Below, in pieces: positions 9,316 to 31,445 of a stretch of DNA of 64,000 bases. Each line of letters begins with the position of its first letter. Positions within the stretch are counted from its first letter, which is position 1. Under the pieces are notes generated by a model. It made no database searches. It saw only the letters and a list, made by a program, of their open reading frames with translations, and was not told the DNA's origin. The DNA is from Lentisphaeria bacterium. Lineage in GTDB: Bacteria; Verrucomicrobiota; Lentisphaeria; JABSQK01; JAWLHB01. Location: positions 1 through 64,000 of the forward strand of contig JAWLHB010000035.1 in NCBI GenBank assembly GCA_041690595.1, read 5' to 3'. The translations under genes were made by a program, and so were the position numbers.

Positions 9316-12195
9316 TCATTGCCGGGGCACGATCTCGTACTGGAGCACGATCGGCGCCTCGCGCGTCACGGTCGATGGCAACACAACCTCCACGCGGTTG
9401 AACTGCACCAGATTGCGCACCAGCATGCCGCTCCGACAGAGGCGCAGTGGCCGCGCTTTGTCCAGCACGATCTCGACCCCCTGGCCGGCGTCGTTACGGA
9501 CCGCAATGGTCTGGCTCTCCGCCGTGCTCAATGCCGTCGTCATGCCTTCCGGAAGGCCATCGGGCTGAGGAAGCTGCAGCTCCTCACCGGCATCTATCGT
9601 CGAACCGGTCGTCTTGGCGGCTCCACCCAGCAGGGGGATGTTCTCGATCAGGTCGCCCAGCTCGGCCACGGCTTCGCTCGTGGACAGTTCGAGAGTGACC
9701 TGCAGCCGGTCGTCGAGGAAGCGATAGGTGCGTGAGTAGTCGATCGGCTGCCCCTCGATCCGCCCGGTCACCACCAGCGTGCCGGCAGCCTCATCCAAGG
9801 TGTAGCCTGTGGCCATGTAGTCTTCCCACCAGCGCAGCCCCTCCATGTCGATGGCCACCAGGCCATGGTGCGCGAAGGGAGTGATGTTACCGGCCAGCAT
9901 GGCGTTGCCGTACGCGGGTGTCCAGAACAAACTGAGGCCGCCGCCCACAAGTGGGTTGACCGCATGAATGTTGTAATAGAGTGACCATGGGTCGGTCGGC
10001 GTATTCTCCGCATGGCCAGGCAGAGGGTGCCGAAAGATCTCGCGACCGCGAATGTACCACTGGTGGGGCACGGGTTTGCCGACATAGATGGCGGTGTAGT
10101 AGGTTGGCCGCTTGATGGCGATCAGCTCGTTGCCGAGATTGCGAATGAACGGCTTCGACTCCATGGCCGGGAACTGGCCCTTTGCGGGGCTCTCGGTCCA
10201 GTGCTGGAACCGAGGCGTCGTGAGGTCGAGCGAGCGGGGCTCGGGGAGTGGTTCCGCGAGGCGCTGGCGAATGGTGGCCAATGCCGCTTCCTGCTCCTCG
10301 GCCGTCGGCGGCTGATACCAGACGCCAACCTCTGGAAGGAGATCATCCAGAATTCCCCTGGCGCCGCTGTATTGCTCGTTGTGCACGCCGTCAGGAGTCC
10401 GGTGGGCGAAGTTGGATGCGCCAATGGGCCGACCACCGGGCTCGGGACCGACCGTATGATTGAAGAAGTAATAGGACTTGCGGATGGCGTCGAGGAAAGC
10501 GCGGTCGCCGCTGAGCCGATAGTAAAGCGCCATGTGAAAATGCTGCATGCCGCAGTAGGTGGCGTCAGGGCCGCAGTTCTCGATGAAGTAGCCTGCCGGC
10601 GAGGCCGAGCGAGCAAAGCGTTGCGCATAGCGCCGTGCCAGCGCCTCGTAACGCGGATCGCCACTCCCTTCCGCAAAGGAGTGCCAACCGACCAGGTAGT
10701 GCGAGCTTTGGTTCATCGCCGAGACCATGTTGTCAGGCAGGTGCCGGTCGATGACATGGCGCAGTGCCTCGGTCCATAGCTTGCGCACCTCCTCCGGCAT
10801 GTGAGGCGCCGCCATGGCGAACTCGGGGAACGCCTTCTTGGCGACAACAAACCCCATCATTCCCGGATAGCTGTCCAGATCGGCGCCGACGCCGCGAAAG
10901 ACTTCGTCCTCGCCAAGCGTCATCAGGTCGCGCAAGGCAGATGCGGCGGCGCGATACCGCAGCTCGTCGCGGCCGTGCCAGGGGTTCAGGGGCGTGTCGA
11001 ATGTAGCCACTTCCGCCAGTACGGCAGCGGCGTTGGTATTGGGCGAAGCCCCCGCCCACAGACCCGGGACCGAACGCAGGCGATCCCAGCGATTCTCCGG
11101 CGGCGCCAACTCCTGCTTCTCCTTCCAGCCCTTCCAGACCATCGCTCCGCTCCAGTGGCTCTGGGGATCAAGATTCTGCTCCCGCAGCGCCGCGGCCACC
11201 GCGGGAAAGAGGCCATAAATGTGCAGCAGCTTCTCGTTCCGGACGGGGGCTGCTTCCCAGGCAGCGACATCCGGCTGCCACAAGGCGAGCAACTCCGCCG
11301 TATCCCCCACTTTTTCCGGGGCCAGCAGGCTGGGCAGGATCTCCGCGATGTGACGCTGGAACTTGTGGCTGACGACAGTCCCATCTTCCAGCACTTCGAC
11401 GGAGGCCTTCAGTTCTCTCGCGGTCGCCTCATCCGGGCACAGGATAACCGGCATGCCCGCGGCCGAGAATTTCCATTTGCCGGGCTGCGGAAACGCGAGC
11501 GTCCAGACTACATCCGTGCGCTCAATCGGCAAATCGGCGGTGGACTGCTCGCCAGACGTAGCGGTGGGAAAGAGCTGCTGCCCCTTGTCGTCGGTCACCG
11601 TCACCCCTTCGCCCCGGATGCTCAGCACTTCCGCATGAGGCGGAATGTAGATGAACATCTTCTCCACCTGCACGTCCCATGGATGGAACAGCCCGTTCTG
11701 GAAGGAGACTCCATAGCGCACGGGCGCATCGAAGTCGAGGTCGATGGTCGTGTTGTTCGACCCGGCCGTCACCCGCAACTGGTGTACGCCGGTGCCGGCG
11801 AAGGTCAGATCCAGATCCGCCAGGAGATCCCCCTGTGCCACGATCGTATCGGGTATGCTGATCGGGATCCCCCAGATTTCGCCGCTGCCTGGTCCGAGAG
11901 TATCGCGCATCTGGCCGGGCTCCAGATACTGCCAGTAGCTGAGGCGCTCTTCCTGATCGAAGGTGCGGATCATCAGCCGGTCCCCCTCCTGCCGCCATCC
12001 CCGACGCGCGGTCAACCTGCAGCCGGTAGTCTCCGCCTCCGTCACCAGGTACAGCGACATCGCTGGAGACGGACGAAACGGCCCCAGTTCCATCTCCTTT
12101 CCAGATGCCGTGTCGGCCATCGCCGATACCGCCACAAAGAGCGCAAAGATCCCCGATAGGAGGGGCCGCCACTTGATTTGCCGATGCTGCATCAT
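9316..12195 (-). CDS. Large secreted hypothetical protein, possibly glycan-active with a helical central domain
   Basis: AAGGAG RBS, signal peptide ending SAMA, helical core with NQSSHY and GYFIENCGPDATY. Last gene of the glycan operon. Confidence 0.65.
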   Translation of the reverse strand: MMQHRQIKWRPLLSGIFALFVAVSAMADTASGKEMELGPFRPSPAMSLYLVTEAETTGCRLTARRGWRQEGDRLMIRTFDQEERLSYWQYLEPGQMRDTLGPGSGEIWGIPISIPDTIVAQGDLLADLDLTFAGTGVHQLRVTAGSNNTTIDLDFDAPVRYGVSFQNGLFHPWDVQVEKMFIYIPPHAEVLSIRGEGVTVTDDKGQQLFPTATSGEQSTADLPIERTDVVWTLAFPQPGKWKFSAAGMPVILCPDEATARELKASVEVLEDGTVVSHKFQRHIAEILPSLLAPEKVGDTAELLALWQPDVAAWEAAPVRNEKLLHIYGLFPAVAAALREQNLDPQSHWSGAMVWKGWKEKQELAPPENRWDRLRSVPGLWAGASPNTNAAAVLAEVATFDTPLNPWHGRDELRYRAAASALRDLMTLGEDEVFRGVGADLDSYPGMMGFVVAKKAFPEFAMAAPHMPEEVRKLWTEALRHVIDRHLPDNMVSAMNQSSHYLVGWHSFAEGSGDPRYEALARRYAQRFARSASPAGYFIENCGPDATYCGMQHFHMALYYRLSGDRAFLDAIRKSYYFFNHTVGPEPGGRPIGASNFAHRTPDGVHNEQYSGARGILDDLLPEVGVWYQPPTAEEQEAALATIRQRLAEPLPEPRSLDLTTPRFQHWTESPAKGQFPAMESKPFIRNLGNELIAIKRPTYYTAIYVGKPVPHQWYIRGREIFRHPLPGHAENTPTDPWSLYYNIHAVNPLVGGGLSLFWTPAYGNAMLAGNITPFAHHGLVAIDMEGLRWWEDYMATGYTLDEAAGTLVVTGRIEGQPIDYSRTYRFLDDRLQVTLELSTSEAVAELGDLIENIPLLGGAAKTTGSTIDAGEELQLPQPDGLPEGMTTALSTAESQTIAVRNDAGQGVEIVLDKARPLRLCRSGMLVRNLVQFNRVEVVLPSTVTREAPIVLQYEIVPRQ

Positions 12196-12222
12196 GATCT
12201 CCTTAAACATTGATTCTCAGTT

Positions 12223-13932
12223 TCACCAATCGACTTCGCTGACGATGAGGCGACAGAGCCGAAAACAGGCCATCGCCTTTTCACTCATACAGCGAATGCC
12301 GATACTTGTCTGGCCGCACTCATCAAGCTGAACGACCCCCACTCGTTCCCGGCGAAAGCGCACTCGGCCACAGAATCTCCCGCCAGTGCAGAGCACCGGG
12401 AATGGCAGACAAACAGTGCCAACAGACAGCTCGAACTCCGTCTCGTCCGCCTCCGGCAGACACTCGTACTCCGCACCGACCAGATAGCTGCCCGGCCGGA
12501 CAACCTGAATATCCCAGGCTGCCGTGGCGCCCGCTTGCCATCCGTCGACCACATCCGTGTGATGCCAGTCACCAAATCTCTCCATCCACTGTACTTTGCC
12601 GAGCCGACACCCTTCCAAAACGGCAAATGGGGCTTCCAGGCAGTTCGAGATGCCGGGGTGAAGCAGCCAACTCTGGACGGTGGCCGCGGCCACGCGTTCA
12701 GCCGCGATCTCGATCACGGTGGCAATGGGATCACGCAGCTCCCGCGGCAGTGCGATGATCAGCTTCCCCTGATCGAGGTGGTGCGGCAAAACCGCTCCCG
12801 TTGTCAGTTCACGGACAGATTTCACCTGATCGCCGACCCCGGCGACCCACAGCGTATCGTCTTCCGGCCAATTCAGGATGTGCAGGTAATGGATCCCCGG
12901 CCGTGACGTGCTGCATCCCCATGCGTGCAGCGGTATCGCCCCCCGAACGGTGCCAAAAATGCTCGTCCCATTTCGCTTGAGCCATTCGCCGGCGCGTCGC
13001 AGCATCTTGGCTGAAGCCTGTGGAATGGCACCCCGACCATCCGGCCCGACATTGAGTACATAGTTGCCCCCCATGCTGGCGATACGTATCAGCCGGCCAA
13101 CCACCTCTTTCGTGCTTTTCCAATCGTGATCCGCCGTGGCAAATCCCCACGTATCGTTATGGGTATCGATGGATTCCCAGAGGCCATCCGGAGCAACCAG
13201 CGGCACCTCCTGATCGCCCAGAGTCGCATAGTCTCCGTAGCCATTGCCGATCCGGCTGTTCACCAGACACCCCGGCTGCAAGTCGCGAACCCGCTGATAC
13301 AGCGCTTGCGAGTCTTCGGCCGAAATGGTGCCTGGGGTATCGAACCAGATCATGGCCACGGGACCATAACGCGTCAGCAATTCTTCTATCTGGGGAAGCG
13401 CCTTCTCTCGCAGATAGCGGCCAAAATCCCCCCGCTCGGGAAAATTCCAATCGTTGCCGGCGCCATCGGGCTCGTGCCAGTCCTGGAACTGCGAATAATA
13501 GAAGCCCAACCGGATTCCCCCGCGATGGCAGGCATCCGCAAGTTCGGCAATCGGATCTCGCGCGAATGGTGTCGCCTCACAGATATTGAAGGCACTGGCG
13601 CTGGACGAAAACATGGCAAAGCCGTCGTGGTGCTTCGTCGTGATGATGATGTACCGCATGCCGGCCTCCCTGGCCAGCCGTACCCATTCGTCAGCATCGA
13701 ACTCGACAGGATTGAACTGCCCTGCCAGCCCCGCGTACTGATCCACCGGTATGCGGGCCCGCCGCATCAGCCATTCCGAAATGCCAAACCACCGCTTCCC
13801 TCCCCATTCGCCGGCCGCCTGCGAGTACAGACCCCAGTGAATGAAAAGACCGAATCTGTCCGCGGCAAACCACGCTCCTCGCTCCGCGTCGGCAGTGGTG
13901 CGCACTGCACTCTCGCCCCACATCTCCGCCAT
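12223..13932 (-). CDS. Alpha-L-fucosidase (GH29) with C-terminal beta-sandwich domain
   Basis: RFGLFIHWGLYS, TTKHHDGF, nucleophile IWFD, VNSRIG, LNVGPDGRG. GGAGG RBS before 13932; alternative start 14010 overlaps the upstream stop. Confidence 0.92.
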   Translation of the reverse strand: MAEMWGESAVRTTADAERGAWFAADRFGLFIHWGLYSQAAGEWGGKRWFGISEWLMRRARIPVDQYAGLAGQFNPVEFDADEWVRLAREAGMRYIIITTKHHDGFAMFSSSASAFNICEATPFARDPIAELADACHRGGIRLGFYYSQFQDWHEPDGAGNDWNFPERGDFGRYLREKALPQIEELLTRYGPVAMIWFDTPGTISAEDSQALYQRVRDLQPGCLVNSRIGNGYGDYATLGDQEVPLVAPDGLWESIDTHNDTWGFATADHDWKSTKEVVGRLIRIASMGGNYVLNVGPDGRGAIPQASAKMLRRAGEWLKRNGTSIFGTVRGAIPLHAWGCSTSRPGIHYLHILNWPEDDTLWVAGVGDQVKSVRELTTGAVLPHHLDQGKLIIALPRELRDPIATVIEIAAERVAAATVQSWLLHPGISNCLEAPFAVLEGCRLGKVQWMERFGDWHHTDVVDGWQAGATAAWDIQVVRPGSYLVGAEYECLPEADETEFELSVGTVCLPFPVLCTGGRFCGRVRFRRERVGVVQLDECGQTSIGIRCMSEKAMACFRLCRLIVSEVDW

Positions 13933-14009
13933 GTCGTCCTCCTGGAACGGAGGTGCACCGCCCGCGGACAGCTCGTCAGACCAGTAAGGCATCGCACACC
14001 CATCGCCCA

Positions 14010-15023
14010 TCACTGGATCGCCTCCCCCAACGCCGCCAGCTGGCGCAGGCTGGCCTCGGGAATCTGACCGTCGGGCGTTACTGGATGATCCCAGCTCACA
14101 ACACCCTCCCAGCCGTTGACATAGCGAGTATACGCCACCACCAGCTCATCGCTGAAGCGCGGCCGTGGATTGCACCAGCATCCGCCCAGGAAGGTGAGGA
14201 GGTGGTATTGCGCGCCCTTCACCCAGCGTCCCACCGGCAGCACGCATGGCTCCTCGCCATTGGTCGGCAACGTGTTGGAGATTTCGCCACCAGTATAGTC
14301 TTCATATTCGGTGACGCAGACGATCGGGTTGCGGACACCGCTGTTGAACGCGACCAGGCTGTCGGGGTTGCCCGCCTTCATGGCCTCCGCAAACGAGCGG
14401 AAATTCGGCCCATCGGCATGGCGGTACATCTTGTCCGCCGCATAGCAGCCGTCGATCCACCAGCCATGCACCTGCTTGCCCCAACGCAGCGACCATTCCC
14501 GGATGACAGCCTCCCAATTCTGCTGGAACTCTGACAGCCGTTCATCGGTACCCACACTATCTTCCGCGGCGTAGCGCCCTTTCGGAAAGCCCAGGATGCC
14601 GCTGTCCCAGGATGGCGTGCAACGCAGCCGCACGATCGCCTCCGCATCGTTGCACGGAGCCGCCGACGGCAGATAGACGAGGAGGCGAACACCCTGCTTC
14701 GTGCAGGCCGCCGCCAGTTCACCGACCAGATCGCGCTGGGACAGCCGACTCGGCTTGCGGCCGACAAGGCCATCGTACGTCGCGTTGGGGGAACAGAAAT
14801 AACCGGAGTTCTGGCCGATGGTCAGGAAGCTGTAGCGGCAGCCGACGCTCGCCAGCGTGGCGGCATAGCGGTCCACGTCGAAAGAGTCGACGCGCCGGTT
14901 CCATTCCTCCGGGGTCATCTCTACCGGCTCAGTGCAACTGGGCTGATCGGCAAGGTAATGGGCGAAGTTGCCCCACCGTGCATCCCGCAACCAATCGGTA
15001 TTCGCGCGCTTCCACTCGCTCAT
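14010..15023 (-). CDS. GH29/GH107-like (clan GH-R) single-domain fucosidase or fucanase-like protein
   Basis: DWLRDARWG, RDLVGELAAACTKQGVRLLVY, WSLRWGKQVHGWWIDGCY, AGNPDSLVAFN, EDYTGGE. Lacks the GH29 KHHDGF motif. Confidence 0.7.
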   Translation of the reverse strand: MSEWKRANTDWLRDARWGNFAHYLADQPSCTEPVEMTPEEWNRRVDSFDVDRYAATLASVGCRYSFLTIGQNSGYFCSPNATYDGLVGRKPSRLSQRDLVGELAAACTKQGVRLLVYLPSAAPCNDAEAIVRLRCTPSWDSGILGFPKGRYAAEDSVGTDERLSEFQQNWEAVIREWSLRWGKQVHGWWIDGCYAADKMYRHADGPNFRSFAEAMKAGNPDSLVAFNSGVRNPIVCVTEYEDYTGGEISNTLPTNGEEPCVLPVGRWVKGAQYHLLTFLGGCWCNPRPRFSDELVVAYTRYVNGWEGVVSWDHPVTPDGQIPEASLRQLAALGEAIQ

Positions 15024-18000
15024 TCGTTCTCACTCCTTTGGAACCACCGCCATTCCGAGGCCACATCGACCTTCAGCCCCGGACGGATGGCATGAATGAC
15101 AAACCAGTCCCCCTGAACGACCCCAGCCTTCTGGAGGTCAGGCGCCCCCGTGAACTCGATGGTAACGCCGCCCCGGCCGCCGCTCATGGGCTGCGTACTC
15201 TTGATCGTATAATGAAGGTTCTTCTCCGGAAACCACACCCCCATGCCGTCGTACCAGGGGTTGTTCGAATGCTTGGACATGGGCCGTGGCGTCCGTAGCG
15301 TTCCGGGCTTGTCCGGCAGGATGTCGAAGACGTCGTGCCAGCTCTCGATGAAGGGCGCATGGTCCTGCAGATCGAGACGCACGAGACCGCCCGGGAGATT
15401 GGTGACCTTCTCGATCCTGTAGCCTTCGTTGCCCCATTCACGCAGGTCGCTCTCCACCTGGATCAGGAGTTGGCGCCCATGGAGCGCCTCCCCCTCCGGC
15501 CACCGCGTGTCGCTCCTGACGATCAGTGCGCTTTCGTGCCGGGTGCCGGTAAGGTCGCCAATGATATCGACGATATCCCCGCCCAGATCGTCGGCAAAGT
15601 GCTCGTCCAACCCGGCGCCGCGCAGGAAGCTCCCGCGGCAGATCTCCACCTGCGCCAGCTTTCCGTTGGCATCACGGCGGATGAGAGCATAACGGGCATC
15701 GGTCTGAGTGCCGTCGGGCAGGCTCAGCGCGCCGCGAGCCGACTGGTAGAGCACGACGTCCGTCGCACCGTCCGCGAAAGTCAGCTTGACCGCCATCCTG
15801 TCGCGTTTCATACCTTCCAGACTGTTCACATCGAGGAGTTCCGCGGCGCGGATGAACGATTCCTCGCCCTCCCGGAAGCCCTCCAGGATGTGGATGAAGA
15901 GGCTTTCGCGCATCGGGTCCTTGCCATCTGCCGTGGAGCCGCGGCGTTCAATGAGGAAATCGAGGCCCTTCTCGAAGGCCACATACCCATCCGTCTGCCT
16001 TCCTTCCGGGAGCGGCTGCCGAAGTCGGGCGATCCACGGCCCCTTGGCGCTGATCAGCTCGAACCGCTCGCTATCCTGCTGAACCACGCCGACGCTGTTG
16101 AAGCCCATCAGGCGCAGCCGCACCTTCCCGTCATCCTCCGGCATCGGGCGCACGAAGCTGCCGTCTGCTTTCCGCGGCGCATAGGCGGCAAAATCGGTCT
16201 TCCAGATGATCTCCCAGGCATCGGCGGAAGGTTGATGACGTTCCACTTGGCCTACCTGGCGCAGGTAGGAGACATCCGTCCCGCGGTGCTTGCCGCCGCC
16301 CGGCAGCACCTCTTCCAAGTTATCCGCCTGGGCCGCGACTTCCGGCAAGACGGCGCCGACACGCTCGGCCCAGGCGCTGTTGAAGAGCGTGTGTTCCGCG
16401 CCGCCGGCCAGCTTCAGCAGATCGAGGGCGTACGGGCGCCCCTCCGGCGTCTCGATGCCAATCAGCGTGCGGCGAAACTCCATGCCGATCTCGCTCTTGA
16501 CGCCAACCTGCGGCCAGGCATAGCGGTCCTGTACGTCGAGGATCTGGAAATCGGCACCGGGGGTGCCGGCCGCCTCGCCCCCCTTGAAGGTGATCACTTC
16601 GCCATAGCCGCGATCGTCGCTGCCCCATCCGAGTCCCGTACCTTTGCCGTCGACATTCGGGGTATTGTGGCAGAGGGAACTGTGCGTGTAATCCCATGAC
16701 CAGCTGGGATTGCGATTGTCGGCACTCATGATTCGGCGGGGGAAGTCCATGGCGGCCAACGCCTGGAACTCGGGCCGATTCCAGTCGAACTGCGGTGACC
16801 ACCACCAGCAGGCGTAGCCACCGTGGCGCATCACCGGAATGCCATCGACCCAGGACTCGATGCTCAACGCATCCTGGCCGTTGTGCAAGGTGGCCCGCGT
16901 GTAGTCCATGGCGATCTCCAGGCGGCGATCCGGCCCGCCGACGCGCAGAATGCCGACGCCATAGTCCGCCCAGTTGCGGCTGCCGATGGCTTCTCGTTTC
17001 CGCTTGGTGTCGGCCGGCGGCAATCCGTAGACCGGCCAGGCAGCGATGTGTTGATCGCCAAACTCCAGCGGCAGCCCCCGCACGGTGGCCTGGTTCATCT
17101 CCTTGATTCCGCGCACGGCGGTCTGGTAGAAGGGATGCTCCTGGATAAAACCCGGCTGAAACCGCAGCCACCCGTCCGCTTTGGCCAGATAGGGCAGGAA
17201 GTAACCGCCGGGCATCGCCATGTAGTTGGGAGCCCCCTCGCCGTTCAGCCCATCGCGATAGGTGTGGTTGTATAGCGTTACCTCGTGCGCCGCGCTGAAC
17301 ATCTTCGCAAGCAGCTCGTCCTCGGCCAGAACCGCCATCAGGATCATCTCGATGTAGATGGCATCCTGATAATTCGTCTGCAGCTTCTGCGAGAAGACGC
17401 TCTTGAAGGTCAGGCAGAGTTCACGGATCAGCTTGTCCGTGATCTTCCGGTCCAACGCTTCGGGATCCCCATGGTTCTCGATCGAGACCTGCCGGAAGGC
17501 GGGATGGTGCCTCGCCAGCGCAAAAGGCTCCGCCCAGATATGCTCCTTCCCCATGTTCAGCCAGCCGCGGTTGAAATTGGGGAACCGTCTGTTCCACGGC
17601 CCGAGCGGGCCGACCGAAAAGACGTTCGGTCGCGGAGACGCCTCCCACTCGGCGCGGCTGAGCGGCAGGATCTCGTTGCGGTAAACCAGGGGCAGCCCGT
17701 AATACGTGTCGGCCACCGCGTCGAGAAGCACCGCGAGCTTGTGCACATTCACGGGATCGCCCGTCTTCTGGTAGGCTTCGGCGAACGTGACGATGCGTGC
17801 GCCACCGATGTCCAGCCAGCGGCGCTGGTCGAAGAGCGTCTTCACGAACAACTCCCAGACCACCCCATCCTGGTCCGTATAGATGGTGCAGGGTACCTTG
17901 GCGACGGTATCGTCCAAATGCAGGAAGCCAACCTCCTCCGTCGCGTGCAACTGGTAGCCACCGGGTGCATCCTGTGCGCGCCCGTAAAGCTCGGTCTTGC

Positions 18001-18466
18001 AGCAGCTTGTTGTGCCATGCCAGTCATTCTCCCGGTCGAATACCAGCGACAGTGACTGCGACTGGCAGAACGGGCAGTAGGAGATCATGGCGTTAGCCGC
18101 CGCATCCTTCCGGGTCGGGGTTCCGCCGCGCACCCGCGCCAGCGGCGCCAGGTGACGCGGGAAATCCGCCAGCAGCTCGTCATCGGTCGGCGCCGATTCC
18201 GCATACCGCTTGTATCGTTCGGCCGCTGTCAGCTCCGACGGATTCTCCCGTTCCCAGCTTTCCACCTGCTGCCGCGTCCATTCCGCGAAGAGACTCTCCC
18301 GATTCAAATCGGGGATCTTCCGTCCGGGGATCAGGGCGGCCACCCTGGCTGCGCGGTCAGGGGAATTCCAGTTGTCTTCCGGCGTCTGCTGTGCGAATGT
18401 GCTCTGGATCATCATGGCTCCCGTCGTGAGCGCGGCAATCAGATACTGTCGCGTTGAGGTGATCAT
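15020..18466 (-). CDS. Large secreted heparinase II/III-like polysaccharide lyase candidate
   Basis: Signal peptide ending TFA, DGLNGEGAPNY, YGVGILRVG, HNGQDALS, CHNTPNVDG. ATGA overlaps at both ends. Confidence 0.7.
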   Translation of the reverse strand: MITSTRQYLIAALTTGAMMIQSTFAQQTPEDNWNSPDRAARVAALIPGRKIPDLNRESLFAEWTRQQVESWERENPSELTAAERYKRYAESAPTDDELLADFPRHLAPLARVRGGTPTRKDAAANAMISYCPFCQSQSLSLVFDRENDWHGTTSCCKTELYGRAQDAPGGYQLHATEEVGFLHLDDTVAKVPCTIYTDQDGVVWELFVKTLFDQRRWLDIGGARIVTFAEAYQKTGDPVNVHKLAVLLDAVADTYYGLPLVYRNEILPLSRAEWEASPRPNVFSVGPLGPWNRRFPNFNRGWLNMGKEHIWAEPFALARHHPAFRQVSIENHGDPEALDRKITDKLIRELCLTFKSVFSQKLQTNYQDAIYIEMILMAVLAEDELLAKMFSAAHEVTLYNHTYRDGLNGEGAPNYMAMPGGYFLPYLAKADGWLRFQPGFIQEHPFYQTAVRGIKEMNQATVRGLPLEFGDQHIAAWPVYGLPPADTKRKREAIGSRNWADYGVGILRVGGPDRRLEIAMDYTRATLHNGQDALSIESWVDGIPVMRHGGYACWWWSPQFDWNRPEFQALAAMDFPRRIMSADNRNPSWSWDYTHSSLCHNTPNVDGKGTGLGWGSDDRGYGEVITFKGGEAAGTPGADFQILDVQDRYAWPQVGVKSEIGMEFRRTLIGIETPEGRPYALDLLKLAGGAEHTLFNSAWAERVGAVLPEVAAQADNLEEVLPGGGKHRGTDVSYLRQVGQVERHQPSADAWEIIWKTDFAAYAPRKADGSFVRPMPEDDGKVRLRLMGFNSVGVVQQDSERFELISAKGPWIARLRQPLPEGRQTDGYVAFEKGLDFLIERRGSTADGKDPMRESLFIHILEGFREGEESFIRAAELLDVNSLEGMKRDRMAVKLTFADGATDVVLYQSARGALSLPDGTQTDARYALIRRDANGKLAQVEICRGSFLRGAGLDEHFADDLGGDIVDIIGDLTGTRHESALIVRSDTRWPEGEALHGRQLLIQVESDLREWGNEGYRIEKVTNLPGGLVRLDLQDHAPFIESWHDVFDILPDKPGTLRTPRPMSKHSNNPWYDGMGVWFPEKNLHYTIKSTQPMSGGRGGVTIEFTGAPDLQKAGVVQGDWFVIHAIRPGLKVDVASEWRWFQRSENE

Positions 18467-20208
18467 GCCGTCGGTTGCCCGTCTCTGGCCAGGCGGACGC
18501 CACAGATCGTGGGGCCCCGGTCGGCGGCGGTATCCAGTTCCTCCAACTCCAGCTTCAGCACCTGCTCACCTGCCGATTCCATGACGATTTCACCCAGATC
18601 CGCTTCCGCCACATGCCAGCGGTTGACCGTCTCATCCTCGATGATATCCTTGCGTCCGACCAGCCCCGAGGCCGAGCCGCTGCCGGCAAGAACGCGCATG
18701 CGGTGGTTGCCATACAGCTCCCGCTTATGCACCTCACGATGCCCCTTGGCACTCTCGCGATCCATGAAGAGCTGTACGTTCACGCGGAAGGTTCCCGGCT
18801 CACGCAGCCGGAAGCTCCACTGCGCCGTATCGCCCGCCTCTTTCCAGCCGCTGATGTCGCCGGCCCGCTCCACCTTCATATGGCCGGGAATGCTCGCCAG
18901 GTAGGCGGGCAAGACCAAGCTGCCGTCCGGCTGCTGGGCCGGCAGCGGATCGACCTCCGGCTCGCCTCGCAGATCCAGCGCCACCACGGTGATCCCTTCC
19001 GCCGGAGCCTGCGCCGGGAGTGACAGGCGCAGCAGACGATGGCCCGTCGCCTCGTCATGCTCCTGCACGAAGGGGACCAGCTCCCGCCCATCCGCCAACA
19101 GCCGTACACCCAGTACCTCGCTGCGCAGCCCGGCAAGGGCAAAGTCCGCCCCCGGCCATTTGAAGAAGTGCAGATACAGGTGGCCCGACTTGCAGGTTAC
19201 CCGCCCCCATGGAAAATCGCAGGGGAAGGGATTCTGGCGGGTGCCGTAGATGCTTTCGCCGTTTGTCTTCAGCCATGCACCAACCGCCTCCAACCGCTCG
19301 ACGCTGGGCGCTGGAATCACGCCGCGATCAGTCGGCCCGACATTGAGCAGGTAATTCACCCCCTTCGAGGCGCACTGCACCAGCAGCCGCAGCAGATAGT
19401 CGACCGACTTCCAGTTGTGGTCGTAATGCTTGAAGCCCCAGGTGTCGTTGAGGGTTGCCGGCGTCTCCCAGTCCCCTTTGACCGTCCCTGCCGGGATCTG
19501 ATTATCGCCAAGGCTGCCATAGTCGCCGCAATCGTGGCCCACGCGCCCGCTCACCAGGCACTCCGGCTGCAGGCTGTGCACGTAGTTGCGCAGATCCATG
19601 CTCTGTTCCCTGGTGATCGTCGCCGGTACGTCGAACCAGATCAGTCCGATCGCACCGTAATTGGTCAACAGCTCACGCAGTTGGGGCTTGACCTTCTCCT
19701 CCAGGTAGCTCTCGAACAGCCCCTCAGCGGGTGGCAGCGACTTGCCGTTGGCGTCGACCCTGTCCCAGTGCATGCCACCTCCTTCCGCCTCCCAGTCGAG
19801 ATCCTGCGAGTAGTAGAAGCAGAGCCGCACGTCATACTTGTGGCAGGCTTCGGCCAGCGCCTTCATGGGGTCGCGGGCATATGGCGTTGCATCGACGATG
19901 TTGTAGGGATGGGCCGACTTGAACATCGCAAAGCCGTCGTGATGCTTGGCGGTGATCACCAGGTACTTCATCCCGGCCTCGTGCGCCACCTTCACCCAGG
20001 CATCCGCATCGAACTCCTCCGGGTTGAAGCGGTCAGCCAGCTTCGCATAGTCCGCCAGTGGAATCTTGCCGATGTGCATGATCCACTCGCCGATGTTCGG
20101 CACACGCTTGCCTTCCCACTCGCCCGCCGCCACCGCGTAAAGGCCCCAATGGATGAACATCCCGAACCGCGCCTCGCGCCACCACCCGATCGAATTGGAC
20201 TCTGTCAT
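18463..20208 (-). CDS. Alpha-L-fucosidase (GH29) with C-terminal beta-sandwich domain
   Basis: WWREARFGMFIHWGLY, TAKHHDGF, IWFD, VSGRVG, WETPATLNDTWG, NYLLNVGP. Start set at MTESNS. Confidence 0.93.
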   Translation of the reverse strand: MTESNSIGWWREARFGMFIHWGLYAVAAGEWEGKRVPNIGEWIMHIGKIPLADYAKLADRFNPEEFDADAWVKVAHEAGMKYLVITAKHHDGFAMFKSAHPYNIVDATPYARDPMKALAEACHKYDVRLCFYYSQDLDWEAEGGGMHWDRVDANGKSLPPAEGLFESYLEEKVKPQLRELLTNYGAIGLIWFDVPATITREQSMDLRNYVHSLQPECLVSGRVGHDCGDYGSLGDNQIPAGTVKGDWETPATLNDTWGFKHYDHNWKSVDYLLRLLVQCASKGVNYLLNVGPTDRGVIPAPSVERLEAVGAWLKTNGESIYGTRQNPFPCDFPWGRVTCKSGHLYLHFFKWPGADFALAGLRSEVLGVRLLADGRELVPFVQEHDEATGHRLLRLSLPAQAPAEGITVVALDLRGEPEVDPLPAQQPDGSLVLPAYLASIPGHMKVERAGDISGWKEAGDTAQWSFRLREPGTFRVNVQLFMDRESAKGHREVHKRELYGNHRMRVLAGSGSASGLVGRKDIIEDETVNRWHVAEADLGEIVMESAGEQVLKLELEELDTAADRGPTICGVRLARDGQPTA

Positions 20209-20225
20209 GAATATGCTTCCCCTCG

Positions 20226-21434
20226 TTAATGAAAGTATTGCTGCTCTCTTGAGTCGCCAAGGAGCGTATGTATCCGAACCGTAGCTCGGCGATAGCACTC
20301 GGCAACCCGCTCCAGCGCATTCAGCCGAAGTTCCTGGGCGCCCACATAGTCGCCGTGCACCTGCATCAGGGCGTCGAGAATCGTTGTGCCGCTGACCCGA
20401 TCGATGTCGAAGGACCACGCGCCCAAACCGAGGTCCTCATACATCTGTCCCTTGATCGTATCCGTCGGCTGGCGCACATAGAAGGCGGGAGTGCCGTTCG
20501 CCAGCGCAATGATGGGGCTGTGGCATTCACAGCTGATCACCGTGTGTGCCTGACTGTAGACATAAGCCGCTTCGTCCGAGCGCCAGAAGGTCGCGCGCTT
20601 GCGCACATAGGGCCGAACGTCCTCCGGGAGCGGGTCGATCAGCAACTCGTCCATGATCTCCAGCTGATACGTCATCTCCGGGCAAACGAGTACGGGGAGC
20701 CCGGTCTCGCGCACCCAGCCTACGATTACCTCCCGCAGCTTCGCGTGATCCGTTTCGGCATGTTCGGCATTGGTGGATTCAACCAACTGGATGCGCTCTT
20801 GGTTCCACTGCACACCTTCGTTCATCGTGTGATAGGGCGTGTAGCGCAAGCGCGGCACCACACAGATGAACTGCCGCTCCTGAAGCCCCGCCTCTTTCAG
20901 AAAAGCCGTGCCCTTGGCCTCGTCGAGCAGGTCAAACATGAAGGTGCCGTCCGGTGCAAAGTCGATCACCGGCTCAGTCACTCCCGATGCCTCCAGCACC
21001 CGTTGCGATGCCGTCTCGCGTGTGTAGACAAAGGATGCCGTGTTCAGCAGCTCGCGCAGGGCCTCGTCCACCTTCTCGATAGTCACGCCGAAGGTGCCGA
21101 AAGGCTTGCCCGTCGTCTGCTGCCAGACCCGCAGATCCTGGCTGGCCACCACGGATGGTCCCGATCCATGGAGCATCAGATCCACCTCGGGGAAGAGCTC
21201 CCGCGCGGCAAGCGGATCGGTGATGAACCGGACCTTGGGGAAAGCGCGCTGAAGCATCGTGTCGACCCCGCGGTCGTCCTTCATCAGCCACGCGATGATT
21301 TGCGCATCCGGCAGGTACTGCTCGAGCACCCGCAGCACCCCTGGCGTGTGCGTGATATCCCCGATGTTGACGGTCTGCCAGCCCGACCGCAGCATGATTG
21401 TGGGCCCGTCAGCCCCGTCTCTCTTCATCCCCAT
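20226..21434 (-). CDS. Polysaccharide pyruvyl transferase family protein
   Basis: WQTVNIGD, HGSGP, YTRETAS, FAPDGTF, CECHSPIIALANGTP. Confidence 0.8.
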   Translation of the reverse strand: MGMKRDGADGPTIMLRSGWQTVNIGDITHTPGVLRVLEQYLPDAQIIAWLMKDDRGVDTMLQRAFPKVRFITDPLAARELFPEVDLMLHGSGPSVVASQDLRVWQQTTGKPFGTFGVTIEKVDEALRELLNTASFVYTRETASQRVLEASGVTEPVIDFAPDGTFMFDLLDEAKGTAFLKEAGLQERQFICVVPRLRYTPYHTMNEGVQWNQERIQLVESTNAEHAETDHAKLREVIVGWVRETGLPVLVCPEMTYQLEIMDELLIDPLPEDVRPYVRKRATFWRSDEAAYVYSQAHTVISCECHSPIIALANGTPAFYVRQPTDTIKGQMYEDLGLGAWSFDIDRVSGTTILDALMQVHGDYVGAQELRLNALERVAECYRRATVRIHTLLGDSREQQYFH

Positions 21435-21456
21435 TGACTCCTGAATTTGGCGGTGT

Positions 21457-24400
21457 TCAGCGTATGGAAAATTGCAGGGTGCCGCGGCCGCTACGGAGGC
21501 TGTCGCGTGGCACGATCACCGTGCCGCCTCCTGCCGGTTCCTTTAGCATGACAACGGTATCGCGCTGGTCCGCCAGAATCCATGCATCGACAAGTTCCAT
21601 CGGCATTGTCAACGCAAAGGCACCAGTGCTCTGCACGTCCAACTCCAGGGTGCCATCGGCATTACGCGTACCGCTGCAGGCAAAGCGGGAGGGAATGGAG
21701 ACACGGTCGCCTGCCTGAATGCTGTAGACGATAAAGGGGTCCCCCTTGACCACCGCCCCGGCTGGCGGCTCGTCCTCGGTGGTGAAGACCGAGCGCTCGG
21801 TGCGCACCAGCGCCGTTTCGAAACCACTGCGCGGGAAGCGGATACGCCGCCCCGATACATTATCCTGGTTCATGATGTGATGGAATTGAAAATCCTGCTC
21901 GAACTTGCGCGCATCGTCTGGATCGCTCTTCAGGATACGCGCGCGCTGAAGGATGAAGGGGGGCGCACCGGCCAGATCCACTCGCCAGCGCCCTTCGCCC
22001 AGATCGGCAATCCCAGCGATCGTATAAACCGACTGCCCGTGTGGGGTCGGCTGATGCCACACGTAGACGAAGTGTCCGTTGAGCGTACCATCCGTCGGCA
22101 ATGGCCTGGTCGACCGGACAATCAGGGCGCTCCGGCGCGGATTTCCCGTCAGGTCGCCATCGACATCCGTCAGCGTCATCTCCCAGCCTGGCTCAAGCTT
22201 CACCCCCCACCCATCGGCCTGAAAGTCGCTGCCATCGACGAGGGTCAGGCGATTGGCCGCCGGGAAAACCGCACCCATGCGGCCGGTCAGCATGGTGCTC
22301 CCCGCGGCCAGCTTCCCGCCCTCCAGCGTGGAGGCGAAGAGCCCCGTACTTCCATCGTCCATGGTCAGCCTGACCACCGCCCCGCCGCCATCCGCCAGCG
22401 GCTGAAGATCCAGAATGTCGGCCTGCGCCAGTTGGGCCGCCTGTTCCGGCAGGCGTGCTTCGACCACGGAGACGAAGGTGGATTCAAGGCCCGGCTGATC
22501 CGCTTCCCGAGAAAGGATGCGCACATCGATGGCGTCCTTCAACCCCACCGTCCTTGTCATGGACTGGCCGCTGTCGGGATCGGTGATGAGGAGCCCGCCG
22601 GGCCATGGCGCTTTAGCTGCGATCAGCTCCCCGGCGGCAGGTGAGCCAGCTACCTTCGTCCACATGCCAAGCTGCACATCATGGAGGAGTCGCGGCCAGT
22701 TGCCATCGTTCTGTCGGTAGCCTTCCGGCTCAGGAAAGGTGCGCCCCGGCTGGATCATCCAATCGCTCTTCCAGCTCTGCTCCGGCAGCGGATAGCGGGT
22801 CAGGCCAGTGATCATGCGACCAGCCCTGGCATAGTGATGAAGGGATTTTCCCGTCAGTCGGTCGTAGTTCAGCTTGAGCCCGCGATACTGGGTCCAGTTG
22901 TCCACATCGAGCGGCTCGCCATTCTTCGGCATCTCTTCGGGTCGTTCGGCCGGTATGCGCCAGAAGAGATCGTGGCGCTGTCCACCGCGAATGCGCAGCA
23001 GATCGAGCACCACGGGGCTGCCGCCCGGCAGGGTGATCAGGGCGACCTGCCGTTGGTAGATATCGACCGGGTTTGGTCGCCCAGCAAAGAGGGAAGCTGC
23101 TCCCGCGTCGACAAACTGCGCCCACCACCCCGGTTCCGCCATGTTGCCCGCGCCGGCATAAGCGTAGAGTTGGGAGGGAACGGTCTTGTGGTACCAGTCG
23201 TCCACCATGGCCACGTTGTGGGCTTCGGGCTTGTCGGCGTAGCCCCACTTCCACGGGCCCCAGCGATCCGTGTCTTCGTTTGGCAGGCCAATAAGCTCAT
23301 AGCCCATGCGCAGTTCCGACCACGGCGCCTTATCCGCTTCGATGAAGCCAATGCAATAGCCGAAATCGGGCAGGCAATCCACGCCCTCGAAAAAGAGCTG
23401 GTAGCTCAGCCGGTCCAGGTGCGCGTGTTGCGCTGCATTCTGATGATTGACGATCAGCTCGAGACGACGCCCCTCGGCTCCGCCACGCAACGCGGTCATG
23501 CCATAGATGGGAAGGCTGAGACTTGCCTCGTGCGTCTCGTACGGGAGCTGATCCGGGTCGGGGCCAGGCCCACCGCCGCGGAAGATCAGCGCATGCTGAT
23601 CCGCGTGTTTGCTGACAATGCCGTAGAGTGTGTCGATCGGCTGATGGCCCAGGTTGTCAATGGTTTCCATGAGCGGGTAACGCTCTTTGAGATCCACGCC
23701 GCCGAAGAAGCTGTGCAGCCAACTGAATCCGAGGATGCCGCTCTGGGTCATCACGGCGTAGTTGAAGGCGGCATCGGCAGCCATGCCGTCGGCCGACCAG
23801 TTGTTGTACATGTACAGCTCCACCAGTTCGAGGCCTTTGCTGAACAGCTCGATATTGCGGAAGGCAATGCCGGCTTTGACCGCTCCCTGGATGTAGGCAT
23901 ATGAGGTGTTGCCGGTCGTGGGTGGTGTGGCCAGCGCGAGGAACTCCATCTCTTTCAGGCATCCCTCCCGGAACCTCCCTTCCCACGCCGCGGGATCGCC
24001 GTATTTCGCAGTGCTCCACGCGAGGGTCTCCGGCTGGTCGCGTATCAGGTCGAAGGCGCCGGCTATCCACCCTATTTGCACCATGACGCCATCCGTCCAG
24101 GCGCTGACACCACCGTGCAGCTTGGCGAAGCTGAAATCGTAAATGTCGCGATACCAGAAGGGATAATCGGCCCGGTCGCGAACATGAATAAATGGCTGCT
24201 CGGCGGTGATCGAGCGATACTCCTCGGCCGTCAGGTAGCCGGTACCGGCCCGATTACGCGCAAAACCATGGGCTTTGGCACCGATGTACAGGGGCAGGCC
24301 GGGATAGACCTCGGCCAGCCGGTCGAGGACCGCCGCCAGTGTCGCCACCGCCTCCCGATTGTTGTTGTAGATGATGGCCGCCGTCAGATCCGGGATGACT

Positions 24401-25071
24401 CGATTCACGATGATGTTCAACCGGCAACGCCAGACCTCCCCTGCCGGGCAGAACCAGTTCTTCCGCGCCGAACCGACTTCCGGCCCCGCCTCACGAAACT
24501 CCTCGGCGACGAAGAAGCGGTACGCATGGACGGTGCCGTCGAGATGAGGGATCTCTTCGGTGTGATTGGGCTTCGCCGCATAGTCTGCCGGCATGTCCGC
24601 TTCATGCGCGTAGATCACCGCCTCCGTTCCAGCTTCCCGCGCCTGAAAAGGGCTGCTCAGGAACTCTTCATCGGTCATCACCGCCCCGGCAAAAAGCTTG
24701 CCGGTAAAGGGAGACAGACCGATCGTCGTCGGATTACCGCCGTTGCCGGCGCAGCTGACCGGGGCGAAATCGCTGATCAGCTCTGCCCAACGCTCCAGCG
24801 GAACGCTGATCCATTTTGCTGCGTCTTGCGGCACGGAGCGATACATGAACTGCCGGTATCCGCCAAATCGTGCCGTTTCCCCCTTCAGCTTCGCGATCAG
24901 CTCGGGCGGGTAGACCCGGGAAGGCAGACGGTAGGTGGCGCCCGCCCCCGGCATCTGAGCCACCAAGCTCTCGTCGTCCAGGGAAAGCGCTCCTTCGGCG
25001 CTGTGCAGCCGCATCGACACCATCGCCAGCATCAACATGGCCACTGCCAGCCGGGAGACGGTTTGCCTCAT
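21457..25071 (-). CDS. Large secreted heparinase II/III-like polysaccharide lyase candidate (paralog of 15020-18466)
   Basis: Signal peptide [49 protein letters not shown] 25071 overlaps the pilin stop (ATGA). Confidence 0.72.
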
Positions 25072-25802
25072 TGTCCGGGCCATCCCCACGGCGCATTGCG
25101 GAGCCATCCTTGCGGCCCGTCATATTGATTGGGATTGAAGAGCGCCACCTGCGTGCTTGCTCCCACATGGCCATCGGCAAAGGCCAGGTTGACCTGGTTG
25201 CCGTGCTGCGCCCAGATATTGCCGCCGGTCAACGCGTTGTTGACGGCAAAGGTCCATCCAGGATAGCTCACGCTGTTCCACGTGTCGAGAAAGTAGATGG
25301 CTTCGGAGGGTTTTCGAATCTCCCCGGCCTTTCGATACGCCGGCCGGCTGCCCCAGTGTGTGCCGCCCATGTTGTACTGAGGCATGCCGTACTGCGGGGC
25401 GAGCTGATAGAGGAGCTTCTCGCTCCTGGAGGGGCAGCGCAGGAGGCTCTTGTCCCGATACTTCACCGGAAAGGTCGCCCAATAGCCCGGCGCCATTTCC
25501 GGCATTCCCAGTTCTTCCCGCATCAGGTACGGAAACCAGTTGTTCTTTGATGTATCCCACGGGTTGACGTTGAGGTCGAAACGATCCACGCCAGTCGAGC
25601 GGAACGGGCAGATCCAACCATCATAGGCTTCCTGATACAGGATGCCCACCAGCGCAAGCTGCTTGAGGTTCGTTGCACAGCTGATCTGCCTCGCCTTATC
25701 CCGCGCCCGCGACAAGGCAGGCAGCAGCAGCGACGCAAGGATGGCGATTATCGCCACCACCACCAGCAACTCGATCAGTGTAAAACAGCGATGCCTATGC
25801 AT
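25068..25802 (-). CDS. Prepilin-type N-terminal cleavage/methylation + H-X9-DG domain protein (DUF1559-like)
   Basis: [40 protein letters not shown]-terminal [22 protein letters not shown]. Confidence 0.92.
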
Positions 25803-25813
25803 GGCGATCCTCC

Positions 25814-26917
25814 TCATGGTTTGTTCTTTTGGCAGGCGACGCTTTCGCCTTCCACCAGTTGGGCCTCGAATTGAAGACTCATGGCTACCGCCGACGGGTC
25901 GGCCAGCCGGCGCTCGATCAGCTCCGGAATCGCCCGACCAATCGTGTACATCGGCAGCTTGACGGCGGTGAGTTGTGGAGTGGATTGACGGGAGATCGCC
26001 GTTCCACCATAGCAGATCATCGACATGTCACGTGGAACCTGAATCCCGCGTTCCCGCAGCACGTCGAGCAGGGTGACCCCCATATAGTCAGTCGGTATCA
26101 CGATCGCGGTAGGCGCTGGATCGAGCGTACCCAGCTTGTCGAGACCCCGCGTGACCGCCTCCGTGAGGCTGTCGCGCTGCCAGTTCCGCTCGAACATCAC
26201 TACCCGCGCCAGCCCGGGCACATTGACGGTGCCGGCCAGGTAAGTCCATGCGGCATAGCGTGGCCCGTGAATCGATACCGCCGAGCGGTCAATCCCATGC
26301 GCCTTCTCGAACTGCTGCGTTGGCACCCACAGCGGCACATTCCTATCCTCCAGCCCCAGCCAAAGGATGTGCCGGTGTCCGTGGGTCGACAGGTATTCGT
26401 AGACCATGGCCGCCGAACGCAACTCATTGCTGTAGACGGCGTCGATGCCACGGTGGAAATCGTAGGATGCGCCATAGATGACCGGGCCGCGTTTCGCCAG
26501 CTCAGTCAGCCAGCTTCCCGGCAGCTCGCTGCGCAGCACCAAGCCACTCGCCTTCTGCGCGTCCCATGCCGCCAAGATGCCTTCCAAGCTGTGGTCCGAG
26601 ATAAATTCCACGCTCCCAGCATTCATGGAGAGGCGCGCTTCCATGCCCCGCAGCAGCTCCCGGCTCAACTCATCATCCCCAGAGAGGTGCGGCCCCGTCA
26701 CCACCAAGAGCTTCAGGCCCGGCTCCGTTTTGCCCCAATGCCGCGGTGGCGCCAGGAGGCCGTGGTGCTTGTCCGTGTAGCCGAGTTCGGTGGCTGCCTG
26801 GCGCACACGCTTCCGGGTGGCTTCGTTCACGCGGCCGACACCACGCAGAGCCCGGGAGACCGTCATCTGGCTCATCCCCACTGCATCGGCAATGTCTTTC
26901 AGCGTTGTCGAGGTCAT
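25814..26917 (-). CDS. LacI-family transcriptional regulator
   Basis: [23 protein letters not shown]...[29 protein letters not shown]. Confidence 0.92.
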
Positions 26918-26938
26918 CTCCGTCCCGCTCCTTATTAG

Positions 26939-27036
26939 TGTTAGTCTATCACAACACTACTCCCCCTTCAAGCCCAATATCTCCGTATTCAGCCTATAAA
27001 CCGAAAAAATATGGCTGATTCTTGTGATAAACTAAC
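26939..27036. promoter_or_regulatory. Pair of inverted LacI-like operator sites in an AT-rich promoter region
   Basis: GTTAGTCTATCACAA (26940-26954) and TTGTGATAAACTAAC (27022-27036) are reverse complements at 14/15 positions, immediately upstream of the lacI-type gene. Confidence 0.65.
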
Positions 27037-28275: not shown

Positions 28276-28315
28276 GCTTCTCATCGATCCTAGTTTTCTT
28301 CATGTTCATGCTTAT

Positions 28316-28377
28316 GTCCCCGCGGTCGCTGGTGAACAGGACCATGGTGTTGCCAACAGCTCATGCCGATCAAGTGC
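28316..28377 (-). pseudogene. Sulfatase-like fragment with a frameshift
   Basis: ALDRHELL, then a 2-nt remnant codon, then NTMVLFTSDRGD, matching the sulfatase motif (L..NT.v.FTSDHG). Confidence 0.55.
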
Positions 28378-28430
28378 GGCTTCCTCGCCTTCCAGGCAGC
28401 GGATCGTTTCAGGCTTCATTGGGGTACACT

Positions 28431-29753: not shown

Positions 29754-29785
29754 GGTTCTACTCCCCATCTTCGTGTTTCTGCTGT

Positions 29786-30025: not shown

Positions 30026-30184
30026 TTACGGCTGAAAAACCACTGGGCGAACGGGCTCGCGTCATGGCCGGCACGGGCATTCCCTTCTTCCTGGGATAGA
30101 GCATGACGGCTTAGATGGTTGCCTGTCGCCCCCCCAACTATCCTTCCCACCTGCTCTCGCCATTTCGGACATCATCCGAGTGCG

Positions 30185-31429: not shown

Positions 31430-31445
31430 GACTTCTCCTCTTGGT

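Follow-up and report, generated by a model that had tools for sequence, protein, structure and literature searches.

Bacteroidota gather the genes for the breakdown of a polysaccharide in polysaccharide utilization loci (PULs), inducible loci that each combine a regulator, a recognition slot, exported lyases and glycosidases. The operon described here lies at positions 9316..26917 on the minus strand of the first 64,000 nt of contig JAWLHB010000035.1 from a Lentisphaeria bacterium (the window; coordinates given without a contig or locus prefix are positions 1-64000 of this contig in forward strand numbering). It resembles a Bacteroidota PUL in placing a regulator together with carbohydrate-active enzymes. 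Unlike such a PUL, it contains neither SusC/SusD nor a TonB receptor, is under one-component LacI/GntR control and carries a gene for a type IV pilin-like protein with an H-X9-DG motif in the recognition slot. The operon works like a PUL but is no SusC/SusD PUL. It is still debated by what means bacteria of the Planctomycetota-Verrucomicrobiota-Chlamydiota (PVC) group, which lack SusC/SusD, recognize complex glycans and bring them into the cell (PMC11131199, PMC11685898).

The pilin resembles the DUF1559/SBP_bac_10 (PF07596) H-X9-DG prepilins (TIGR04294 with TIGR02532) in its domain matches and its literal H-X9-DG motif. DUF1559 shows a large PVC-specific expansion and is among the largest families of unknown function there (PMC4807772), and the accessible parts of papers naming DUF1559 yielded neither a function nor a link to glycan operons. 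A comparable arrangement is the alginate operon pgaptmp_000046-60 of Verruconatronum alginivorum, in which a substrate-induced 251-aa pseudopilin (pgaptmp_000050, with 67 homologues) is found among heparinase II/III-domain lyases and LacI genes, as in the window; unlike the window operon it has an SSF transporter, and the accessible part of the report describes no recurring cassette (PMC13274419). In Akkermansiaceae, the pilus-type attachment locus MUL2 is needed in mul-dependent mucin uptake, which ties a pilus-type machine to glycan attachment and uptake within the GTDB phylum of the source organism; contig C2 of the source genome carries a syntenic locus, yet MUL2 is one conserved locus, whereas more than 170 variable pilins are spread here across sugar-regulated operons (PMC13174399). 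In an externally degrading planctomycete, the T2SS (type II secretion system) is up-regulated on fucoidan (PMC11685898). No description of a regulator-pilin-enzyme cassette was found in a literature search that left subscription papers and bioRxiv supplements largely uncovered. The pilin-like protein of the operon appears to be a regulated, locus-specific type IV pilin that is matched to an adjacent exported lyase and would depend on a shared machine, and the layout of the genome suggests that polysaccharides are captured by substrate-matched pili instead of outer-membrane importers.

Pilin head types and adjacent lyases

Nine minus-strand open reading frames (ORFs) make up the operon, their starts having been corrected by ribosome-binding sites and ATGA overlaps. 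It opens with a LacI-family regulator of 367 aa (25814..26917; PF00356 4e-15, PF13377 3.5e-21), followed by the H-X9-DG/DUF1559 type IV pilin-like protein of 244 aa (25068..25802; PF07963, PF07596 and TIGR02532 above cut-off) and by giant 1, an exported protein of 1204 aa with a heparinase II/III or PL17-like fold in its AlphaFold2 model (21457..25071), whose start overlaps the pilin stop (ATGA). From the LacI gene onward the gaps measure 11, -4, 22, 17, -4, -4, 77 and 12 nt, seven of the eight being shorter than 30 nt, and the nine co-oriented, tightly packed genes of the initial annotation were thus recovered at their positions.

The source genome (8.1 Mb, 97% complete) was annotated with our own gene caller, which yielded 5586 genes. 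A profile of the pilin N-terminus matched 186 ORFs, from which 173 called genes at E <1e-20 were kept and 13 were dropped; the 173 pilins display 122 head types. The head closest to that of the window pilin is encoded on contig C28 (47% identity, 142 bits; next best 36 bits). This locus consists of a LacI gene, the pilin and a lyase only, and the lyase is the nearest giant 1 paralogue (920 bits), whereas the C28 LacI is just 22% identical to that of the window. The closest paralogues of the window LacI (48% and 43%) head other pilin loci, together with homologues of the operon's 964-aa protein and with unrelated pilins. As head and lyase are shared with C28 while the kin of the regulator are found elsewhere, the operon has a mosaic make-up, with pilin and lyase moving as a pair. 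The notion that the pilin travels with its regulator was rejected, regulator similarity being no predictor of head similarity (rho 0.027, p 0.18, 2480 pairs).

The same pairing was found in a Victivallales genome, where locus L001 holds in one run a GntR regulator, an orthologue of giant 1 (53%), five pilins, an orthologue of the 964-aa protein and two glycosidases orthologous to the 337-aa glycosidase of the window. Four of these five pilins are of the window head type, so that head type and lyase have stayed together in the two genomes although regulator family and gene order differ. The five pilins stand in tandem (L001:13559-17411) and the four of one head type have clearly diverged from one another, an instance of local head diversification. 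A substrate-specific pilin had been proposed in the initial annotation; at C28 and L001 the head type goes with the adjacent lyase and not with the regulator. Over the whole genome, a homologous flank gene is common to the members of 10 of 24 head clusters (mean of 1000 permutations 0.7, highest value 4). There are 23 shared flank pairs, each made up of large proteins of which at least one has a predicted signal peptide; the comparison was less complete for small flank genes.

A word search with the head alone returned two proteins, both apparently from the source genome. A head-profile search of 201 genomes of the class, in which up to 17 candidates were scored per genome, gave strong matches in the source genome only (245 and 233 bits; next 81) and none in four genomes with strong giant 1 homologues.

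The predicted exported lyases

The AlphaFold2 model of giant 1 (predicted local distance difference test, pLDDT, 92.9) matches the PL17 alginate lyase Alg17c (Foldseek 1e-18; VIA Z 29.0, root-mean-square deviation (rmsd) 4.5, 575 residues aligned), followed by enzymes of PL40, PL39, PL12, PL15 and PL21; for structure entries without a PL family in the title, the number is the one we take to apply. Its topology, an (alpha/alpha)n toroid with a beta-supersandwich, is extended by additional C-terminal beta domains. Three residues of giant 1 (Asn363, Tyr413 and His524 in mature numbering) are the same in all 29 rows of its own clade and in all five rows of the clade of giant 2, an exported, distant paralogue of 1148 aa (15020..18466; full-length homology to giant 1). 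We presume that they form a catalytic triad, as in PL12, PL15, PL17 and PL21. His524 aligns weakly (E 0.24) to the HxHxD motif of PL17. Giant 1 shares the common fold, and probably also the HxHxD motif and the conserved Asn/Tyr/His, with the toroid lyases of PL17, PL15, PL39, PL12, PL21 and PL40, but is only 9-16% identical to them and has about 270 additional C-terminal residues, so that neither a family nor a substrate is assignable. Judged by this model, the giants are predicted polysaccharide lyases of an unassigned family, which agrees with their original description as heparinase-like, giant 1 by predicted structure and giant 2 as its paralogue. In another genome (G160), the giant 1 orthologue is fragmented, being either frameshifted or misassembled (L017:6855-8658).

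The third large exported protein, of 964 aa and unknown family (9316..12210), offers a weak lyase-like lead: its first match in the Atlas is unnamed (0.96), and clusters of heparinases and ulvan lyases reach just 0.86-0.87. Searches of Pfam and of PDB sequences gave no match for this protein, giant 1 or giant 2.

Pilin genes across the genome

A LacI/GntR-type regulator lies directly upstream of 71 of 172 pilins (65 co-oriented), compared with 131 of 5318 other genes (2.5%), and 65 of the 147 such regulators in the source genome are directly followed by a pilin. AraC regulators at this position add little (3 of 173 pilins). Directly downstream, a co-oriented gene of at least 600 aa was found for 84 of 173 pilins, against a background of 14.3%. 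A second genome (G008) was sampled in two 400-kb blocks at round positions, in which some pilin matches were already known; here, 11 of 34 pilins have a regulator at -1 (other genes, 16 of 508) and 22 of 34 a large co-oriented gene at +1 (59 of 508). The layout of regulator, pilin and large gene is a genome-wide rule with dozens of instances and not a one-off.

The first non-pilin gene downstream is predicted to be exported in 84 of 120 cases (747 of 4332 in the background; our own heuristic), and among downstream partners of at least 800 aa in 58 of 65. Genes for polytopic membrane proteins are rarer near pilins (11 of 533 vs 213 of 4332). Pfam domains were compared between a random 40 of 110 partners and 40 length-matched controls. 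Glycan-related domains (glycoside hydrolase (GH), polysaccharide lyase (PL), carbohydrate-binding module, sulfatase or lectin) were present in 17 partners and 8 controls (p 0.053, strict), or in 22 and 8 when DUF4838 and DUF4861 were included (p 0.002); other functions were found in 5 partners and 24 controls (p 2e-5), and no match in 13 and 8. In both genomes, H-X9-DG genes therefore tend to follow LacI/GntR regulators and to precede large genes, whose products in the source genome are largely predicted to be exported and often relate to glycans; such an enrichment had been predicted.

Two further gene families of the source genome came to light. Its GntR-type helix-turn-helix regulators carry a LacI-type sugar-binding domain in 93 of 106 cases, a hybrid family that is expanded together with the pilins. 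In a family of 75 paralogues, whose N-terminus we take to be sulfatase-like from its motif, none of the members has a predicted signal peptide, so that many glycan-trimming steps look cytoplasmic, though there are few recognizable sugar importers.

The pilin protein

The window pilin has the leader MHRHRC and a mature length of 238 aa, with Glu5, Cys36/Cys117 and His194-X9-Asp204-Gly205-His206. It scores 29.0 (cut-off 23.3), 29.4 (21.2) and 20.9 (16.3) bits in the PF07596/PF07963/TIGR02532 profile set, and its PDB profile matches are the N-termini of pilins. The His and Asp of the H-X9-DG motif are invariant in 127 alignment rows; the 22-position model TIGR04294 left the window pilin unmatched at E 0.01 and matched 54 of the 127 relatives. 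Both Glu5 and a Cys near position 36 are present in all 173 family pilins of the source genome. The heads are enriched in Trp (3.8 vs 2.2%), Tyr (6.5 vs 3.4%) and Asn (6.5 vs 3.2%) and are also rich in Gly.

The structure prediction called for by the initial annotation recovered a type IV pilin-like helix (residues 2-53, pLDDT >90) and a loop-rich head (overall pLDDT 92.5). The top 21 rows of the VIA comparison are type IV pilins or pseudopilins, with a best Z of 5.0 (rmsd 3.3, 118 residues aligned, residues 1-216), and Foldseek gave no match for the model at E 0.001. As the best Z is just 5.0, the head can at most be called a distant relative of the pilin fold. Prediction of a complex between pilin residues 24-238 and giant 1 residues 488-1179 returned a score of 0.00, which is no answer and evidence neither way.

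The residue at -1 of the window pilin is Cys and not the Gly of a class III site. Gly is found at this position in 14 of 173 family pilins of the source genome and in none of 34 in G008. Prepilins of the source genome and of the 800 kb of G008 mostly carry Arg, Lys, Ser, Ala or Asn at -1, core pseudopilins included. Since the operon-linked core pseudopilins likewise lack Gly-1, the PilD of this lineage is probably relaxed in its specificity. Short family pilins of about 160 aa occur in tandem at C28:84339-92867 and C32:1-2264, several of them with a canonical Gly-1 (KKG/F, RVG/F, RDG/F), and the short pair on C28 adjoins a gene for an O-antigen-ligase/TPR protein (Wzy_C); these short pilins may be housekeeping, glycosylated major pilins.

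Abundance data are available for the pseudopilin of the V. alginivorum operon, which accounted for 0.513% of the proteome when alginate was the substrate and for 0 with mannose or sucrose (PMC13274419 Table S3). This is the highest value of rows 46-60, the operon lyases reaching 0.111 and 0.097, and it also exceeds GspG (0.064) and a secretin (0.03) (PMC13274419). By our own count the tables list 51 pilin rows of 200-280 aa that are not annotated as GspJ, PilV or FimT: one at 0.9-1.8% in all conditions, pgaptmp_000050, one present only with sucrose (0.033%), and 48 that either went undetected or did not exceed 0.016% (PMC13274419). A 129-aa pseudopilin beside PilT was also induced by alginate (0.222 vs 0.006) (PMC13274419). 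These proteomes comprise one replicate per condition, and in the later rows the entries on signal peptides appear to be displaced (PMC13274419). The co-induction expected in the initial annotation has thus been reported for a pilin of the same size and a specific substrate, in a verrucomicrobial organism other than the source organism (PMC13274419). The annotation's label of a minor pilin, however, is not borne out by the invariant Glu5 or by this major-pilin-like abundance (PMC13274419) and is probably wrong.

Secretion and pilus machinery

The source genome encodes one PilD with both domains, and it contains six secretin matches and 19 ATPase matches above cut-off. A PilB-PilB-PilT-PilC cluster is present, its PilT above cut-off, and T2SS-like operons were found on contigs C53 and C28. 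On contig C7 (C7:125517-133481), a family pilin heads an operon that continues with a secretin, a PilM-like and a PilB/GspE-like protein, and this operon is a direct genetic link between the pilin family and one machine. The locus at C2:283506-291119 is syntenic with Akkermansia Amuc_1098/1100/1101/1102, all four NCBIfam matches being below the equivalog cut-offs; a search of PDB sequences with the Amuc_1102-like protein returned nothing, and the Amuc_1098-1102 gene set is absent from the window operon. A T2SS or type IV pilus-like machine with PilD, PilB, PilC, PilT, PilM and secretins is thus encoded elsewhere in the genome.

Importers are few. There are four TonB-dependent receptors, each 10 to 24 genes away from any pilin and hence none within nine genes, as well as two SSF genes, one MFS_2 match above cut-off and 31 ABC-permease matches. 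PF00593 was sought in five relatives (96-99% complete), which were chosen for their richness in pilins and are not independent; none of the five has a match, while each encodes 7-14 ATPases of the PilB/PilT family. Within the operon, Pfam and our own heuristic detected no transporter family and no transmembrane segment past residue 45 in any of the nine proteins, in agreement with the initial annotation, which had noted that SusC/SusD, TonB receptor, ABC and MFS genes are missing.

Function of the pilin

Our preferred reading, held tentatively and at somewhat less than an even chance, is that the pilin is a substrate-matched, abundant subunit of a pilus fibre that binds the substrate of the adjacent lyase for glycan capture. 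What favours an abundant glycan-binding fibre subunit is the published abundance, which is like that of a major pilin, together with the invariant Glu5, the variable aromatic head, the retraction motors and the absence or scarcity of TonB receptors. Gene content, folds, genome-wide linkage, the co-tracking of head and lyase and the presence of machines come from the present analysis, and co-induction and high abundance would carry over by analogy from V. alginivorum (PMC13274419). Linkage, a shared machine, few TonB receptors and locus-specific heads are the parts of the initial annotation's overall reading that stand, and the minor pilin is the part that falls. We infer a course of processing, polymerization, glycan binding and retraction-driven uptake in which LacI would induce the locus in response to an acidic, fucosylated polysaccharide; of the three Sec-exported proteins then made, two would be lyases that cut the polymer. 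The pilin would be processed by the single PilD and then assembled by a shared PilB/PilC/PilT/secretin machine into a fibre, of which it is probably an abundant subunit; for this machine, the MUL2-like locus or the operon starting with a family pilin are candidates. Its variable, aromatic-rich head would bind the glycan and hold or pull the polymer to the envelope, a SusD-like recognition role without a TonB receptor, and the cytoplasmic GH29-like enzymes would trim the imported oligosaccharides. A bolder extension, which we regard as speculative and rather unlikely, is a TonB-independent import in which each glycan operon supplies an interchangeable major pilin, a shared retractile fibre swaps its subunit to suit whichever sugar is sensed, and the polymer is drawn through the secretin as the fibre retracts, as competence pili do with DNA; the roughly 170 paralogues would then be a library of glycan-binding pilins, the pilus counterpart of SusC/SusD.

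Several observations speak against a fibre that binds glycan, and some of them suit the strongest competing explanation, in which the pilin would aid export or surface display: within a T2SS-like pseudopilus or at a pilus tip it would recognize the adjacent large enzyme and push it through the secretin or display it, degradation would be extracellular, and small products would enter via porins and shared transporters. Co-tracking of head and lyase fits binding of the substrate, binding of the enzyme or mere co-duplication alike, and the linkage to large exported proteins is explained equally well by export, since partners of at least 800 aa are overwhelmingly exported, the flank pairs that similar-head pilins have in common are without exception large proteins, the minimal unit in common with C28 is pilin plus lyase, and T2SS-like operons exist on C53 and C28. 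The strict glycan enrichment is on its own borderline, 14 of 24 head clusters have no flank gene in common, and the fold match of the pilin is low. The V. alginivorum operon includes an SSF transporter, and export of the alginases by a T2SS is what the authors of that study prefer, to which the response of the planctomycete T2SS to fucoidan may be added (PMC13274419, PMC11685898); those proteomes are also single-replicate, and the family identity of the pilin in them follows from size and annotation rather than from sequence (PMC13274419). Giant homologues were counted at 20 distinct loci (L001 and L016-L035, leaving out the duplicate L034 and the short-match L036-L042). A pilin of any kind is present at six of them and the window head type at L001 only; the other 14 have none in the available DNA, several of these blanks ending at contig ends. 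This count led us to reject an obligate 1:1 pair of pilin and lyase, and it weighs against an export helper as well as against capture. So does the variable ratio for the helper, with one pilin to three exported proteins here and five pilins in L001. Canonical T2SSs, moreover, export many clients with one set of pseudopilins. With a published pilin abundance about five times that of the lyases and eight times that of GspG (PMC13274419), we consider the export or display role unlikely on balance, though a serious contender.

The remaining difficulties of the capture reading lead to two further explanations. PilD processing of the window pilin is assumed, as its -1 residue is Cys and not Gly, and the GH29-like enzymes without signal peptides require an inner-membrane importer that the locus lacks. 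Both points would be accommodated by an unpolymerized protein anchored by its helix in the inner membrane, with a head that keeps periplasmic oligosaccharides ready for an importer or sensor used in common: the non-Gly residue at -1 in 159 of 173 pilins could mean that no cleavage takes place, and SSF, MFS and ABC systems are few. We nevertheless judge it improbable, since core pseudopilins of the same genome also lack Gly-1, which points to a PilD of relaxed specificity, neither Glu5 nor the long helix varies, one secretin-PilM-PilB operon begins with a member of the family, and the regulators are one-component cytoplasmic sensors. A role unrelated to particular glycans, such as adhesion in general or variation of the surface as an antigen or phage receptor, the pilins being carried along in mobile catabolic modules that offer convenient promoters, would fit the 122 head types, the 14 of 24 head clusters without any shared flank gene, the occurrence of giants without pilins and the ease with which adjacent genes co-duplicate. 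It is hard to reconcile with the fixed slot directly behind the regulator, the overlapping stop and start codons, a GC content at third codon positions (GC3) of 0.75 vs 0.77, a head type that stays with its lyase across changes of regulator family and gene order, and the substrate-specific induction in print (PMC13274419), and it appears to us the least probable of these explanations. The cassette assigns each pilin a candidate substrate, that of the adjacent lyase, and a candidate machine. If capture by the pilin is true, it would be a new principle of uptake, and the pilins would provide glycan-binding modules in large number; if export is true, it would be an unusual client-specific secretion system.

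Other genes of the operon and predicted substrate

Between and behind the giants, the operon encodes a polysaccharide pyruvyl-transferase homologue of 402 aa (20226..21434; PF04230, PS_pyruv_trans, 1.5e-14), two GH29 alpha-L-fucosidase-like enzymes (18463..20208, PF01120 6e-79; 12223..13932, PF01120 5.6e-82) and a short GH29/GH107-like glycosidase of 337 aa (14010..15023, PF01120 1.3e-7). In genomic order from the LacI gene, the three GH29-like proteins score 266, 32 and 276 bits with PF01120 (Alpha_L_fucos; cut-off 25.2). The 337-aa protein matches PDB chains of GH29 fucosidases (2e-11) and of GH107 endofucoidanases (8e-4). Pfam matches thus agree with the labels given at the outset to the LacI regulator, the pilin-like protein, the pyruvyl-transferase homologue and the three GH29-like enzymes. 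By our own simple heuristic and inspection of the N-termini by eye, export signals are confined to the pilin and the three large proteins; they are missing from the pyruvyl-transferase homologue and from the GH29-like enzymes. With the pyruvyl-transferase homologue, the CsaB profile stayed far below its cut-off and a PDB sequence search returned nothing, and it may have a catabolic role. We infer that the substrate is a uronate-containing, acidic and fucosylated polysaccharide; that it might also be pyruvylated is suggested by a single Pfam match.

An A+T-rich stretch upstream of LacI (26918..27010) is, from its sequence, the likely promoter and operator region. Scans of the operon region for sigma-70 consensus sites and terminators gave no excess over shuffled sequences (5 vs 4.3 and 9 vs 10.7), and no clear operator palindrome was found near the operon. 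A recent foreign island was rejected as the origin of the operon, as its GC level is flat and its GC3 is 0.75 compared with 0.77 in the rest of the genome.

Neighbouring genes

A BASS/SBF symporter gene on the plus strand (8376-9296) converges on the operon and ends 19 nt from its last gene; it is part of an opposite-strand unit, co-oriented with a carboxypeptidase Taq gene. Just upstream of the operon, a second cassette on the minus strand (27307-33244) consists of a GntR regulator (32183-33244), a pilin (31446-32186), an exported pectate-lyase-like protein (30185-31429), an acetyl-xylan-esterase-like protein (28431-29753) and a URO-D-like protein (27307-28275). Past the end of the window, this contig carries two further regulator-pilin pairs (C35:74301-78316). 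The window also contains a Wadjet-type (JetABCD-like) cluster on the minus strand (40028-46904) with DUF2397, DUF2398, an SMC-like ATPase and JetD_C/DUF2399, as well as MlaC/MlaF/MlaE lipid-transport genes and a DUF4276/AAA_21 ATPase pair (52399-54991 and 61591-63398).

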